64,000 nucleotides of DNA, taken from NCBI GenBank assembly GCA_001818495.1, contig MHKS01000005.1:12288-76287 (forward strand). Reading direction: 5' to 3'. The position numbers and the translations under genes were made by a program. The number at the start of each line of letters is the position of its first letter. The stretch's first letter is position 1. Origin of the DNA: Candidatus Komeilibacteria bacterium RIFOXYD1_FULL_37_29 (lineage in GTDB: Bacteria; Patescibacteriota; Patescibacteriia; UBA1558; GWA2-36-10). The notes under the pieces are model-generated. The model was not told where the DNA came from, made no database searches, and was given only the letters and a program-made list of their open reading frames with translations. This document shows positions 1-4,571 of this stretch, one piece after another.

Positions 1-518
1 GGCTTACCAGTCACTACTCCCAAAGATGGTTTACCAACTAGTTTAGAAAATTCATCAGCCATCCAAGCCATAATTTGTGGCGTGGTATAAACATCGGGGG
101 CTGGAATATCTTTTTCCGGACCAATAATTTCCCGAAAAGCTCTAATCCAAGCGCGAGACAGTCTCTCTGTCTCGCCTAGAGATAATGCTTTGGGGTCAAC
201 AATCACCCCACCCTTACCACCACCCATGGGTATGCCCACTACCGCACATTTTATAGTCATCCAAAAACCCAGAGCCTTTACCTCGTCCAAATCCACTTGA
301 GGATGAAAACGAATCCCTCCTTTATAGGGGCCGCGGGCGCTATTGTATTGGACGCGATAGGCTTGAAAAATCTTTAAAGACCCATCATCCATGCGAATAG
401 GCAAAGAAGCCATCACTACTTTCTCTGGACTAGATAAACGAGCTAACACTTCTTTATCTAGATTAATTAAGTTTGCAGCTTTTTCTAGCTGCCTCAAAGC
501 ATTGTCGTATGCATTCAT
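1..518 (-). CDS. gdhA: NAD(P)-dependent glutamate dehydrogenase, N-terminal part (gene 3' end lies beyond the window start)
   Basis: The reverse-strand translation starts [14 protein letters not shown]... and carries the GGIRFHP and GGGKGG signatures of Glu/Leu/Phe/Val dehydrogenases; ATG at complement of 516-518. Confidence 0.8.
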
Positions 519-547: not shown

Positions 548-1504
548 TTATTTTTTGGGAGTCCAGTCTGGTGTCAAAGGTTTATCACCTTGTAAATAAC
601 GATAGGCCTGCAAAGCGGCCTTACAACCCTCACCAGCGGATATAACGGCTTGTTTATAGGTAATCTGAGTGATGTCACCAGCGGCAAAAATCCCCTTAAC
701 ATTTGTTTCATTATCAACGGTGATTTTTATTTCCCCCCGCTCAGTCAAATTTAAATTTAAATTTTGTAGCCACTTCGTGCTGGCCAAATGACCAATCTCC
801 ACAAATATTCCATCTACTGCTATTTCTTCTTTTGGTCCGTCAGTGATTTGATAAACCAAAGCCTCCACCCGACTGGTGCCTTTGACTTCAGTAACCGCAG
901 CGTTAAAAATGATCTTAATATTCTTGGCCGCTCGCACTTGATCAACCAAAACACTTTCACCACGAAATTTATCTTTACGCACCAATAGATACACCTGGTT
1001 GGCCAGTTTAGACATATATTCAGCGGCATCCAAAGCCGAATTACCACCACCAATTACCACTACATTTTTACCCCGATACAATGGACCATCACAAGTAGCA
1101 CAATAAGTCACTCCCTTGCCGGTTAATTCTTTTTCTCCTGGTACTTCTAGATTTCTGGGTGTCAAACCAAAAGCCAAAATAATAGTTTTAGCTTTAATCA
1201 ATTTTTTACTACCAGTTTGTACTACAAAATCTCCGGTGCTTTGTTTTTCTATCTGACAAACTTCTTCAAATAAATATTCCACACCGGTTTTGGCCGCCTG
1301 AGCTTGAAATTTTTGAGCCAAAGCTAAACCGCCAATTGATTCAAAACCCGGATAATTTTCTACATCTTCCGTCAAAGAAATTTGACCACCAATGTCTTTG
1401 GAAATAACCAAAGTCTTCATGGAGCGACGAGAAGTATAAATAGCGGCTGTCAGTCCGGACGGACCAGCACCCACTATCACTACATCATAAACTTTATCTT
1501 CCAT
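548..1504 (-). CDS. trxB: thioredoxin-disulfide reductase
   Basis: 318 aa; N-terminal FAD motif VVIVGAGPSGLTAA and redox-active CATCDG. Confidence 0.9.
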   Translation of the reverse strand: MEDKVYDVVIVGAGPSGLTAAIYTSRRSMKTLVISKDIGGQISLTEDVENYPGFESIGGLALAQKFQAQAAKTGVEYLFEEVCQIEKQSTGDFVVQTGSKKLIKAKTIILAFGLTPRNLEVPGEKELTGKGVTYCATCDGPLYRGKNVVVIGGGNSALDAAEYMSKLANQVYLLVRKDKFRGESVLVDQVRAAKNIKIIFNAAVTEVKGTSRVEALVYQITDGPKEEIAVDGIFVEIGHLASTKWLQNLNLNLTERGEIKITVDNETNVKGIFAAGDITQITYKQAVISAGEGCKAALQAYRYLQGDKPLTPDWTPKK

Positions 1505-1508
1505 GATT

Positions 1509-1835
1509 TTATTTTGAATATTTATTAATCAAAGCCAATAAGGCCTCCTTGCCTTGTAAGCCAATCATGTTTTCTACTTCTTGTCCGTCTTTAAACATTT
1601 TTAAAGTGGGAATACTCATGATTTGAAACTCACGCGAGGTAGCTTGGTTGTCATCAACGTTGAGTTTACCAATTTTTACATTGCCCTGACCTTTGGTGGC
1701 CTCAACAACCTCTTCGATAATCGGACCCTGCATCTTACATGGCCCGCACCAGGGAGCCCAAAAATCTACTAACGCTACTCCTTTAAATTGTTTTACTTCT
1801 TGATCAAAGTTTTGATCTGTTAATTCTAGTGCCAT
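1509..1835 (-). CDS. trxA: thioredoxin
   Basis: 108 aa with the WCGPC active site; 4 nt from trxB. Confidence 0.9.
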   Translation of the reverse strand: MALELTDQNFDQEVKQFKGVALVDFWAPWCGPCKMQGPIIEEVVEATKGQGNVKIGKLNVDDNQATSREFQIMSIPTLKMFKDGQEVENMIGLQGKEALLALINKYSK

Positions 1836-1856: not shown

Positions 1857-2117
1857 TTATGTGACGTCAAATAAGACGTCGATTAATTTTAATAATTCTT
1901 CTTTCTTGGCTACCCGGCCACTATCATAACAACCACCGACTTTATCATCTACCAAAAGTTTCATCACTGAATCAAGCGAGGCTCTGGCCGCTTTAACTTG
2001 GCACACAATATCTTCAATGCCTCTTTTGTCCTGATACATTTTTTCTACAGCGCGAATCTGCCCTTCAATCCGATGAAGCTGAGAAATAATGCGTTCTGGC
2101 TGACAAATTTTTTTCAT
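1857..2117 (-). CDS. CsoR/RcnR/CstR-family (DUF156) metal- or persulfide-sensing transcriptional repressor; start moved to the second Met
   Basis: HRIEGQIRAVEKM core typical of the CsoR family, with three Cys and no His at the Y position. The track start at 2147 would put the operator palindrome inside the gene, so the ATG at complement 2115-2117 is preferred. Confidence 0.7.
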   Translation of the reverse strand: MKKICQPERIISQLHRIEGQIRAVEKMYQDKRGIEDIVCQVKAARASLDSVMKLLVDDKVGGCYDSGRVAKKEELLKLIDVLFDVT

Positions 2118-2120
2118 ATT

Positions 2121-2142
2121 ATATACCCTCTGGGGGTATACT
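2121..2142 (-). promoter_or_regulatory. CsoR-type operator overlapping the -10 of the csoR-like/trxA/trxB promoter
   Basis: Inverted repeat ATACCC-tctgg-GGGTAT, close to the B. subtilis copZA CsoR site (ATACCCTACGGGGGTAT). On the minus strand a TTGACA-17-TAGTAT promoter sits immediately upstream. Confidence 0.5.
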
Positions 2143-2258
2143 ATCATTTTTAAAAATCCTTGTCAAATAAAATAATGCTCTATAAAAACTGCCCAAAAGA
2201 TATTTTTGGGCAGTTTTATTTGGCCAATATTAGATAAAAAAAGCTATTCCTGACAGAA

Positions 2259-3233
2259 TTAGCGGATGGTATGATCATCGCTCTCATCACGAATATCCCC
2301 CATGATCTCTTCCAAAATATCCTCCATGGTTACGAGCCCCAAAAGCTCCTCTTCCCGAAAAACCACGGCCATATGCCGATGCTTACGACGCATTTTATTA
2401 AAAACATTATTAATCTTTTCTTCTGGCCTTAAAATAATAATTGGCTGCATTATTTTCTTTAGGGGTGCTTCCCGATCTTCACTATTTAAAACCTTGATAA
2501 TATCAATCACATGGACATAACCAATAATATTATCTTTTTGATTATGATAAACAGGATAACGAGAAAATCCAGAATGGCCAATAAAATAAGCTACTTGATC
2601 AACGTCCGCATCATCGTTTAAAACCTCTATTTTATAACGCGGAGTAATAATATCTTTGACTTCTTTATCATTAAATTCCAAAACATTAATAATCATTTCA
2701 TGCTCTTCAAAATCAATGGTACCGCCCTCTACAGCCAAACGACTAAGTGCCCGAAATTCCATTTCTGATACCCCCTCGGCTTTCCGACCACCAGTTAAAA
2801 GCTGTAATAATTTTTCCAAAATATAAACTATCGGGAATAAAATTAGCTGTAAAAAATAAACAACGGGGACAAAAAATAAAGCAATTTTAGCGGCTCGTGT
2901 CTGAAAAAAGGCTTTGGGGTACATTTCTCCAAAAACCAAAATTAAGAAGGTCATTGTTCCGGTAGCTATTCCCGCTCCAGCCGTACCCCAAATACCAATG
3001 GCTGCCACAGTAGCCAAGGAAGCAGCACTAATATTAACTAAATTATTACCCAAAAGTAAAATAACCAATAATTTTCGCTTATTAGTTAAAAGTTTTTGCA
3101 AAAGATGGGCATTTTTTCTTTTTTGTAAAACCAATTCTTTTACTTTGGCTGAGGAAAGGGAAAACATGGCTATTTCCATACCGGAAAACCAAGCCGACAG
3201 ACACAATAAAACCACTAAACTTAAATAAATCAT
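2259..3233 (-). CDS. HlyC/CorC-family membrane protein (DUF21 TM domain + CBS pair + CorC_HlyC)
   Basis: 324 aa with an N-terminal four-helix TM domain, a CBS region and a C-terminal acidic transporter-associated domain. Confidence 0.8.
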   Translation of the reverse strand: MIYLSLVVLLCLSAWFSGMEIAMFSLSSAKVKELVLQKRKNAHLLQKLLTNKRKLLVILLLGNNLVNISAASLATVAAIGIWGTAGAGIATGTMTFLILVFGEMYPKAFFQTRAAKIALFFVPVVYFLQLILFPIVYILEKLLQLLTGGRKAEGVSEMEFRALSRLAVEGGTIDFEEHEMIINVLEFNDKEVKDIITPRYKIEVLNDDADVDQVAYFIGHSGFSRYPVYHNQKDNIIGYVHVIDIIKVLNSEDREAPLKKIMQPIIILRPEEKINNVFNKMRRKHRHMAVVFREEELLGLVTMEDILEEIMGDIRDESDDHTIR

Positions 3234-3245
3234 ACTGTTATAAAT

Positions 3246-3320
3246 TGGTGTCCTCGAGAGGAATTGAACCTCTATTTAAGCCTTAGGAGAGCCTTGTTCT
3301 ATCCGTTGAACTACGAGGAC
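3246..3320 (-). tRNA. tRNA-Arg (anticodon CCU)
   Basis: Cloverleaf folded by hand: acceptor GTCCTCG/CGAGGAC, D arm GTTC..GAAC, anticodon loop CTCCTAA, T arm AGAGG-TTCAATT-CCTCT, encoded CCA. Confidence 0.75.
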
Positions 3321-3383: not shown

Positions 3384-3989
3384 CTATCTGCCAGCTAGCG
3401 GAACTTTAAACATACAACCATGACCAGGGATAATAAAATCAGCTAATTTTAATATCTTCTGCCTGCTTAGCTCATAAGCTTTTAAATCATTAAATAATAA
3501 TGGTTTTTTATCTAAATCCGCCAAACTAGCTGTGGCTATGGCGTCTCCAGCTATTATTATCTTGCCTTGAGCAGTTGTCACTAATAAAGAAATGTGGTCT
3601 TCGGTGTGTCCCGGGGTAAGCAAAAATTCTACATCTTTAGCTAATTTTAGACCATCTTTTATATCTACCCGCTTTAAATACCGTTCTGTTGGTACGTGGT
3701 ATTGTCCGGGATAATCAGCTTTGAGCTTGCAGTAAATTCGAGCTTTATTAAACAAGGCCACATTACTAGTATGATCAAGGTGTAAATGGGTTAAACAAAC
3801 AATATCAATGTCAGCTGGTTTTAAATTATTTTTAGCTAATTCTAGCAAAACTTCTTCTTGGTCGGGTAAATATCCTGGATCAACAATAATATTTTTATCC
3901 GTTTTAATTAAGGTCACGGTGGCACCAATAATCAATTTGTCATCAGCTACTTGATGACGACCCACTACCAATACTTTCACTTCCGCCAT
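3384..3989 (-). CDS. MBL-fold metallo-hydrolase
   Basis: 201 aa with the THLHLDH metal-binding motif. Confidence 0.75.
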   Translation of the reverse strand: MAEVKVLVVGRHQVADDKLIIGATVTLIKTDKNIIVDPGYLPDQEEVLLELAKNNLKPADIDIVCLTHLHLDHTSNVALFNKARIYCKLKADYPGQYHVPTERYLKRVDIKDGLKLAKDVEFLLTPGHTEDHISLLVTTAQGKIIIAGDAIATASLADLDKKPLLFNDLKAYELSRQKILKLADFIIPGHGCMFKVPLAGR

Positions 3990-4148: not shown

Positions 4149-4571
4149 ATGTTTTCAAAAAATCAAACTACTACGCCATCTACCAAGGGCATCGAAACAA
4201 TCATTGGACCATCTGTCAAAGTAGAGGGCGATTTTAAAGGCGAGGGCGATTTGGTAATCGAGGGCGTCTTAATCGGCAATCTACAAACCAAAAATAACCT
4301 AAAAATAGGCAAAAATGCCATCATTGAAGCCAGCATTAAGGCCAATAATGCCTTTATTTCCGGTAAAGTCAAAGGAGATATCCTAGTTAAAGGCAAGGTG
4401 GAAATTACTGGTACGGCCATTATTTTGGGTAACATCAAAGCTCAAATTATCTCTATTGAGAGTGGCGCCTTAATAAAGGGTACTCTAGATATGCCGGTCG
4501 GTAATATTACAGTCGATGAACCACGTTTAGAACCCCACCAAGAAGCGCCGAGAGAAGACAAGGAAAAATAA
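4149..4571 (+). CDS. bactofilin-family cytoskeletal protein
   Basis: 140 aa of repetitive beta-helical bactofilin core (GDFKGEGDLVIEG..., ISGKVKGDILVKGKVEITG), followed by a proline/charged tail. Confidence 0.75.
   Translation: MFSKNQTTTPSTKGIETIIGPSVKVEGDFKGEGDLVIEGVLIGNLQTKNNLKIGKNAIIEASIKANNAFISGKVKGDILVKGKVEITGTAIILGNIKAQIISIESGALIKGTLDMPVGNITVDEPRLEPHQEAPREDKEK

Follow-up and report, generated by a model that had tools for sequence, protein, structure and literature searches.

A CsoR-family repressor with a putative thiol switch heads a thioredoxin operon in Candidatus Komeilibacteria

We analysed a 64,000-nucleotide (nt) stretch of contig MHKS01000005.1 (positions 12,288 to 76,287 of the forward strand; assembly GCA_001818495.1) from Candidatus Komeilibacteria bacterium RIFOXYD1_FULL_37_29, called the window below, in which a gene for a small CsoR-family regulator stands directly before genes for thioredoxin (trxA), thioredoxin reductase (trxB) and glutamate dehydrogenase (gdh). 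We read these genes as an autoregulated redox-stress operon, regulator-trxA-trxB-gdh, governed by a thiol-disulfide switch, and we give this reading as a whole a probability of roughly 0.55. It has three layers. The reduced repressor very probably binds an ATACCC-N5-GGGTAT operator lying over the -10 element and the transcription start, and would thereby block RNA polymerase. The signal is probably thiol oxidation and not a metal, because every metal fingerprint fails and the regulon is a disulfide-reducing system. The third layer is tentative, its chances lying a little short of even, and proposes that Cys5 and Cys63 form a disulfide or related sulfur bridge, assisted by Lys59 and reversed by thioredoxin. 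The family of the repressor, its operator and the wiring of the operon are well supported.

The initial annotation had described a frame of 86 amino acids (aa) encoding HRIEGQIRAVEKM with a CsoR-family core, and this frame is indeed present on the minus strand. The results showed that the protein matches Pfam PF02583 at 61.9 bits (cut-off 22.8; E = 8e-17) over residues 8-79, and a phmmer search with it returned structures of InrS, CsoR, CstR and FrmR. Its AlphaFold2 model, a single chain with a pLDDT (predicted local distance difference test score) of 88.6, has helices at residues 7-29, 34-61 and 72-82 and thus forms a three-helix protomer, and the best 18 Foldseek matches of this model in the PDB all belong to the CsoR family. 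Membership of the regulator in the CsoR/RcnR superfamily follows from profile, fold and operator alike. As a trait of that family, assembly into a dimer-of-dimers tetramer that binds DNA when uninduced is predicted for it. Residues R16 and Q40 are the equivalents of the DNA-contact residues R57 and Q81 of Streptomyces lividans CsoR (SlCsoR), and Gln13 replaces the first Arg of the RLXR motif. The closest homologues, 84-86% identical, are named Candidatus Komeilibacteria. The list of open reading frames also offers a 96-aa version starting at 2147. Its earlier rejection was justified: that start is not viable because most relatives are 86-87 aa long and because ATG 2147 lies within the extended -10 element and is unconserved.

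We then examined the DNA in front of the regulator gene. The TTGACA-17-TAGTAT promoter proposed before is present and carries a TG extension in addition, scoring 10/12 matches plus this extension in the promoter scan (-10 TAGTAT, 2143..2138). The inverted repeat over the -10 element, previously taken for a CsoR-type operator, was likewise found, and its TAC-N9-GTA geometry, type 2 for the family, agrees with the consensus ATATACCCCTNAGGGGTATAT and the TAC-X9-GTA rule of experimentally defined CsoR operators (PMC3902906). It also conforms to the experimentally defined operator rule of CstR and FrmR and resembles the cst operator of Streptococcus mitis, ATATACCCTTATGGGGTATAT (PMC8643695). The operator shares 2 nt with the -10 element and covers the predicted transcription start near 2131; its arms grow to 7 nt if the site is extended to 2122..2140. 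The exact ATACCC-N5-GGGTAT pattern occurs once in the 64-kb window and in none of 100 shuffles. A regulon search of the window with up to two mismatches gave 3 sites against 1.86 expected by chance, and revealed no second operator. Upstream, the neighbouring CNNM/CBS gene ends in an intrinsic terminator, whose predicted stem reaches 14 bp with flanking A-U pairs (-20.6 kcal/mol, z = -4.5); none of 200 shuffles folds as well. The regulator promoter therefore starts an independent transcript that is shielded from read-through. Rfam and tRNA scans returned nothing in this region; their only finds were tRNAs at other places in the window.

Scanning one genome per species, we obtained 24 related loci, with regulators 60-86% identical to that of the window. 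On the strand of the regulator, trxA comes next in all 24 and trxB after it in all 23 that reach that far, one locus ending at a contig end. Exactly one ATACCC-N5-GGGTAT site lies 17-37 nt before the regulator start in every related locus, without mismatch in 23 and with one mismatch in 1. When these loci and the window (25 in total) were aligned on the operator, TTGAC, TGnTAnnAT and the operator itself were conserved, and the flanking DNA was not. Hairpin and T-run elements similar to the terminator of the window precede the promoter in many of the related loci. These features are real, far beyond chance and strongly conserved. The regulator-trxA spacer measures 17-38 nt in 20 of the 24; the four longer spacers (92-185 nt) contain no second operator, only GC-rich hairpin inserts. 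Such hairpins, for example GATTCCCGCTTTCGCGGGAATGAC, were observed in AT-rich DNA both upstream of the promoter and between regulator and trxA (L012, about 3890..3915 and, in the spacer, about 4285..4310; also the spacers of L001, L007 and L009), and they look like small repeats of the REP (repetitive extragenic palindromic) or MITE (miniature inverted-repeat transposable element) kind. Seven of the locus-bearing metagenome-assembled genomes (L009, L014, L017, L018, L019, L021 and L022) are labelled 'uncultured Gammaproteobacteria bacterium'. All four of their genes, for regulator, TrxA, TrxB and glutamate dehydrogenase, share 59-81% identity with the Komeilibacteria/Parcubacteria counterparts, and the labels of these assemblies are probably wrong.

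The features of the locus are collected in Table 1. The spacings of 21 nt between regulator and trxA and 4 nt between trxA and trxB had been given correctly, and the promoter scan of the window locus found no promoter-like site between the regulator start and trxA from which the trx genes could be transcribed separately. TrxB scores 341.4 against TIGR01292, slightly below the cut-off of 343.45. The initial annotation had taken trxA and trxB as the only downstream genes; however, gdh starts 29 nt past trxB in the same orientation and probably closes the operon. A full-length orthologue of the truncated window gene carries PF02812 and PF00208. A tblastn search placed gdh behind trxB in 22 of the 24 related loci, and did so too in L028, a distant locus. 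The trxB-gdh gaps in relatives are mostly about 8-25 nt and hold no conserved promoter, and no terminator-like fold was found between trxB and gdh in the window. A single promoter serving all four genes is thus the best explanation. A promoter-like TTGACA within the 3' end of trxB was considered as a conserved gdh promoter and rejected, being absent in relatives. In L002 (5603..6745), L004, L005 and L011, a malic enzyme (PF00390 and PF03949) stands between trxB and gdh. The glutamate dehydrogenase and malic enzyme families both include NADPH-producing members, and TrxB has a segment, RKDKFR, that we take to resemble the NADPH-binding HRRxxxR motif. On these grounds we infer that the operon pairs an NADPH consumer with its suppliers. 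A 6-bp GACGTC/GACGTC hairpin (1862..1881; -9.8 kcal/mol, z = -2.5) was noticed at the 3' end of the regulator gene. It was rejected as a terminator, as it has no U-tract and is the product of two Asp-Val codon pairs; it is probably incidental, and could reduce read-through into trxA.

Table 1. Features of the regulator-trxA-trxB-gdh locus, in window coordinates
Feature	Position	Strand	Basis or detail
CsoR-family repressor, 86 aa	1857..2117	minus	ATG 2117 to stop 1857; PF02583
Sensor-site residues: Cys5 (N-terminal arm), Ile34 (X), Lys59 (Y), Cys63 (Z)	within the regulator		alignments
Thioredoxin TrxA, WCGPC active site	1509..1835	minus	PF00085, E = 2e-30; TIGR01068, 117.6 vs cut-off 96.8
Low-molecular-weight thioredoxin reductase TrxB, CATC redox motif	548..1504	minus	PF07992
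Glutamate dehydrogenase, truncated at the window edge (N-terminal 172 aa)	1..518	minus	tblastn; orthologue domains
Sigma-70-type promoter: -35 TTGACA (2166..2161), 17-nt spacer, extended -10 TGaTAGTAT (2146..2138)	2138..2166	minus	promoter scan
Operator ATACCC-TCTGG-GGGTAT (ATACCCCCAGAGGGTAT), type-2 CsoR site, TAC-N9-GTA	2123..2139	.	inverted repeat
Intrinsic terminator of the upstream CNNM/CBS gene	2184..2213	minus	10-bp core stem CUGCCCAAAA/UUUUGGGCAG, then UUUUU

To identify the sensor residues, we mapped the family positions W, X, Y and Z onto the regulator by phmmer alignments, ungapped from helix 1 to Z, and by a MAFFT alignment that included fragments of the reference structures (InrS 5fmn, CsoR 6ahx and 4m1p, SpCstR 7mq1). 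Ile34 is the ungapped counterpart of the canonical X Cys in InrS, CsoR and CstR; Y, which is His in CsoR and InrS and Asn55 in CstR, aligns to Lys59; and Z aligns to Cys63. C30, N55 and C59 of SpCstR correspond without gaps at an offset of +4 (SpCstR numbering equals regulator numbering minus 4). The initial annotation had named Cys39 and Cys63 as the ligand positions, with a Lys four residues before Cys63. All three residues are where it put them; however, Cys39 falls at X+5, next to Gln40, and is present in only 10 of the 40 members of a clade alignment, position 39 being Arg in 29/40. In the same alignment, the N-terminal arm always carries a Cys (at position 5 in 39 members and position 6 in 1), position 34 is Ile, Val or Leu throughout, and Lys59, Gly62 and Cys63 are each found in 40/40. 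The conserved partner of Cys63 in the sequence is hence Cys5, which had been missed, and not Cys39. Judged from these alignments, the fingerprint reads as C-[I/V]-K-C, with its first Cys at about W+3 on the N-terminal arm, and not as the x-C-x-C of CstR. With Ile or Val at X, neither a Cu site nor the dithiol site of CstR can form. Residues X+5 and X+6 (residues 39-40, codons about 1998..2003) were seen to covary in the clade, as Cys-Gln in 9/40, Cys-Leu in 1/40 and Arg-Val in most others. Nearly all other CsoR-family representatives have Gln at X+6, the position of the DNA contact Q81 in S. lividans CsoR, so that most clade members have swapped a conserved DNA-binding Gln while keeping the same operator.

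We next compared the site with those of known metal sensors. The absence of a His at Y, pointed out before, was borne out by the alignment, which placed no His or other metal ligand at X (Ile34) or Y (Lys59), and the gene context showed no metal-efflux neighbours. Cu(I)-sensing CsoR proteins of Mycobacterium tuberculosis, Bacillus subtilis, S. lividans and Geobacillus thermodenitrificans share the fold, the autoregulation and the type-2 TAC-N9-GTA operator with its G/C tract; their x-C-H-C ligand set, in contrast, is absent from the regulator, as is copZA from its locus. The fingerprint of the Ni/Co sensors RcnR and InrS (H-C-H-H or H-C-H-C, its W an N-terminal His) is missing as well, W being Lys2 (InrS residue 27 equals regulator residue 8), X Ile and Y Lys. 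The fingerprint P-C-H-x of the formaldehyde sensor FrmR (Pro2, Cys35, His60) is replaced by an N-terminus MKKIC with Ile at X and Lys at Y, and no frmA occurs at the window locus. A sensor that held Cu(I) or another thiophilic metal on Cys5 and Cys63 is nevertheless conceivable: two thiolates can bind Cu(I), the closest sequence matches include InrS and Cu-sensing CsoR, and relatives are named 'metal-sensing transcriptional repressor' in public sources. We regard it as extremely unlikely, given that the X Cys and the Y His are both absent, that no copA, copZ, rcnA or nrsD-like gene is adjacent in the window and no copA or copZ occurs in its operon or in the 24 related loci, and that the genes controlled are trxA-trxB, with gdh in 22/24. 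In NCBIfam, the regulator has no specific model and belongs to no metal-sensor equivalog (RicR, 37.9 against a cut-off of 175).

The likeness to CstR of Staphylococcus aureus, Enterococcus faecalis, Streptococcus pneumoniae and S. mitis is closer. The two share the PF02583 fold, a Cys-based site apparently not meant for metal and lacking a Y His, an operator of near-identical type, and a Z Cys on the flexible junction of helices 2 and 3. They differ in that the X Cys of CstR (C30 or C31) is Ile34 in the regulator and the Asn 'wedge' at Y, defined for clusters 4 and 10 of the family (PMC11672702), is an invariant Lys. Moreover, the regulator adds the conserved Cys on the N-terminal arm, and its regulon is trxA-trxB-gdh where that of CstR consists of sulfide and persulfide detoxification genes. 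The CstR-like x-C-x-C label of the initial annotation thus fails on Ile34 and Lys59, and the persulfide specificity attached to it is unsupported because the locus has no sulfur-oxidation genes: the neighbourhood consists of trxA-trxB-gdh, joined in some loci by malic enzyme, and holds no rhodanese, coenzyme A (CoA)-persulfide reductase, persulfide dioxygenase or sulfide:quinone oxidoreductase (SQR). A CstR-type persulfide sensor in which Cys39 and Cys63' form a dithiol pair, joined between protomers by di-, tri- or tetrasulfide links, would suit the presence of both cysteines, the missing Y His, the resemblance to the S. mitis cst operator and the true x-C-x-C of distant thioredoxin-linked relatives. 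Many Patescibacteria have been described from anoxic groundwater, where reactive sulfur species are plausible inducers. We hold this sensor to be quite unlikely, however, since Cys39 lies five residues (about 7.5 A of helix) beyond an X that is Ile34, since 29/40 clade members have Arg there with the same operator and operon, since Y is Lys and not the Asn wedge, and since no gene for a sulfurtransferase, persulfide dioxygenase, SQR or CoA-persulfide reductase was found in the 24 loci examined. What stands of the initial proposal is its outline, a thiol-based CsoR-family autoregulator of the thioredoxin system; its choice of cysteines, its CstR label and its operon extent do not.

We also investigated how far the link to thioredoxin extends beyond these loci. 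An exhaustive profile search over 1.84 billion cluster representatives returned two representatives at E below 1e-30 and the next match at 2e-18, a jump that marks the C-x-K-C clade as discrete. Its nearest outgroups, 31-43% identical, also head thioredoxin genes, and they come in three forms. In P0051, P0052 and P0053, Cys is found on the N-terminal arm and at Z and not at X; trxA comes next in their loci, joined in L028 by trxB and gdh. P0055 and P0064 have C-C-x-C and precede trxA, followed for P0055 by trxB and gdh. P0056 and P0060 have x-C-x-C without an arm Cys and precede trxA-trxB, with gdh following in the P0056 locus. The contigs of P0054 and P0058 end too soon to reveal what genes adjoin them. 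Most of the outgroup loci linked to thioredoxin carry a promoter-overlapping TAC-N9-GTA palindrome in differing flavours, namely ATACT-G7-AGTAT, which is the type-1 style of RcnR and FrmR, ATACCCCTAGGGGGTAT, and an AT-rich TACT-N7-AGTA. Of 150 family representatives, 12 are without the X Cys, and 6 of these carry an N-arm Cys; of the 138 with an X Cys, 10 do (Fisher p = 3.6e-4). This agrees with a takeover of the X Cys function by the arm Cys. Together these proteins define a broad thioredoxin-linked CsoR-like clade, of which we found no description in the literature.

A metagenome scan with the operator gave mostly generic CsoR-type operators among the matches listed, in unrelated organisms, many of them GC-rich, and these did not delimit a regulon. 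Among the matches listed, L044 has trxA behind a regulator whose X and Z residues are Cys and whose Y residue is Lys, L117 has a regulator followed by trxA and trxB, and L127 has one followed by trxA. CsoR-type operators with no regulator in between were observed directly before trxA in L075 (about 360..400, reverse orientation) and before genes for a CxxC glutaredoxin-like protein and a TrxR-like protein in L089 (6738..8387); CsoR-type thioredoxin control therefore reaches past autoregulated operons and past the C-x-K-C clade. Repeated palindromes, TGTTCTGCGTGGAACA, TGTTCTACGTAGAACA and GTTCCACGTGGAAC, were seen upstream of the trx-operon promoter in L028 (2300..2430, three copies) and L034 (about 1865..1880), and may be sites for a second regulator.

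As to how the proposed Cys5-Cys63 switch might operate, the AlphaFold2 boundaries set Cys5 two residues ahead of helix 1 and Cys63 two residues beyond the end of helix 2, which would put them at adjacent ends of one antiparallel hairpin. An ideal-helix estimate suggests that their C-alpha atoms, each in a flexible segment, rest about 10 A apart. In CstR, the loop linking helices 2 and 3 is the most dynamic one and begins with the Z Cys. When its signal arrives, FrmR orders its N-terminal arm against the sensor site and remodels the DNA-binding surface (PMC5146963). By analogy, Cys5 on the lysine-rich arm would bridge to Cys63 at Z, just past helix 2, where the invariant Lys59, one helical turn off, would favour the Cys63 thiolate. 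Tethering of the arm could remodel the DNA-binding face of helix 1 and pull the Lys-rich arm and helix 1 off the DNA, releasing the operator, much as the Pro2-Cys35 bridge acts in FrmR. Derepression would then raise thioredoxin and thioredoxin reductase, with glutamate dehydrogenase, and malic enzyme in some relatives, supplying NADPH, and thioredoxin would re-reduce the repressor and so close a negative feedback loop. FrmR, RcnR and InrS likewise place the N-terminal arm in the sensor site (a W His, or Pro2 bridged to Cys35), and ordering of the arm alters their DNA-binding surface. They differ from the regulator in that its arm residue is a Cys at W+3, and not the N-terminal amine, Pro2 or His3. 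The presumed partner of that residue is the Z Cys in place of the X Cys, and neither frmA nor rcnA is present.

The switch could also do without a Cys5-Cys63 bridge, through sulfenylation or S-thiolation of Cys63, like one-Cys OhrR, or through symmetric Cys63-Cys63' or Cys5-Cys5' disulfides, with Cys5 auxiliary or resolving. Cys63 is the only sensor residue invariant over the thioredoxin-linked group and the reference structures, Lys59 at i-4 could activate it alone, and EcFrmR forms adventitious intermolecular disulfides. Yet the N-arm Cys, kept in 40/40 clade members and in the nearest outgroups lacking the X Cys, is hard to explain if one Cys is enough, and we judge this version unlikely. 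Another proposal is an autorepressor that senses nothing and only buffers expression of the thioredoxin operon, its cysteines being structural or incidental; negative autoregulation alone accounts for an operator on the repressor's own promoter. This strikes us as very unlikely, considering that the invariant cysteines of this cytoplasmic 86-aa protein sit exactly at the signal-perception site of the family, that the Z Cys is kept in every thioredoxin-linked subgroup while other site residues vary, and that all characterised CsoR-family members respond to an inducer.

Several points count against the proposed reading. The placement of Cys5 and Cys63 comes from a monomer model, and their pairing may lie within one protomer or between two. 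The window protein has the extra Cys39 beside the DNA-contact residue Gln40, and Cys39 may take part in its switch. P0056 and P0060 head the same genes without an N-arm Cys; that Cys is therefore not needed for thioredoxin control generally and may serve otherwise. The cases that link an N-arm Cys to loss of the X Cys are phylogenetically non-independent, 5 of the 6 lying in the thioredoxin-linked group. CstR itself reacts with hydrogen peroxide (H2O2) in vitro, so that persulfide may yet be what the regulator senses. The operator sequence is generic to the CsoR family and so does not by itself reveal which protein binds it. Finally, the suggested co-transcription of NADPH-generating enzymes with an NADPH-consuming reductase involves putative cofactor preferences for glutamate dehydrogenase and malic enzyme.

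Thiol-based circuits of comparable logic exist in other systems. In Streptomyces, RsrA-SigR controls trxBA, and thioredoxin re-reduces RsrA; this system is a functional analogue only, RsrA being a zinc anti-sigma factor of an unrelated family. The H2O2 sensor RexT of Nostoc has the same circuit logic, in which the oxidised sensor frees thioredoxin genes, and belongs to the unrelated ArsR/SmtB family (PMC8960804). Within the CsoR family, TTHA1953, the repressor of the Sox pathway in Thermus thermophilus, is also a two-Cys protein and binds DNA only when reduced; H2O2 or Cu(II) turns it into disulfide-linked dimers, and its targets include the thioredoxin-fold gene soxW (PMC10318464). It differs in its cysteines (C39 and C68), in a regulon for sulfur oxidation, in an operator without a G/C tract and in having no control over cytoplasmic TrxA/TrxB. 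The regulator most likely works as a thiol switch of the CstR or TTHA1953 type; the Cys5-Cys63 pairing and the inducing oxidant we infer from the site and its regulon.

Full-text literature searches found no paper describing a CsoR-family regulator of trxA-trxB, and neither this wiring nor the cysteine layout of the regulator was found described for the family. The main sequence similarity network paper on the CsoR family does not mention thioredoxin; its clusters 6-9 are uncharacterised and possibly include the clade of the regulator. According to a 2024 Chem Rev review, understanding of oxidant specificity is limited since the CsoR family lacks a characterised sensor specific for H2O2, and the thioredoxin-linked clade offers a concrete, testable candidate for such a sensor. 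The series from x-C-x-C through C-C-x-C to C-x-K-C provides a natural evolutionary set for the study of sensor-site migration within one scaffold. For Patescibacteria, a probable redox-stress regulator with a conserved promoter, operator and operon makes a clear prediction for metatranscriptomes, and the linkage of trxB with gdh and malic enzyme suggests a packaged reductant supply. A broader proposal, possible and in our view rather doubtful, joins these strands. The CsoR family would gain in these proteins its first dedicated sensors of disulfide or peroxide stress, with a new sensor topology in which the N-arm Cys pairs, inside one protomer, with the Z Cys once the X Cys has been lost in evolution. 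With thioredoxin, thioredoxin reductase and the co-transcribed NADPH-generating dehydrogenases, they would form a self-resetting homeostat, perhaps the core, or even the only, oxidative-stress regulon of many genome-reduced Patescibacteria.

The remaining neighbours of the operon in the window are a CNNM/CBS (CorC-type) membrane protein (2259..3233, minus strand), tRNA-Arg(CCT) (3246..3320, minus), a metallo-beta-lactamase-fold protein (3384..3989, minus) and a bactofilin (4149..4571, plus). In 15 of the 24 related loci, the CNNM gene is found no more than 4 kb upstream of the regulator, and a bactofilin is also near in L029 and L032.

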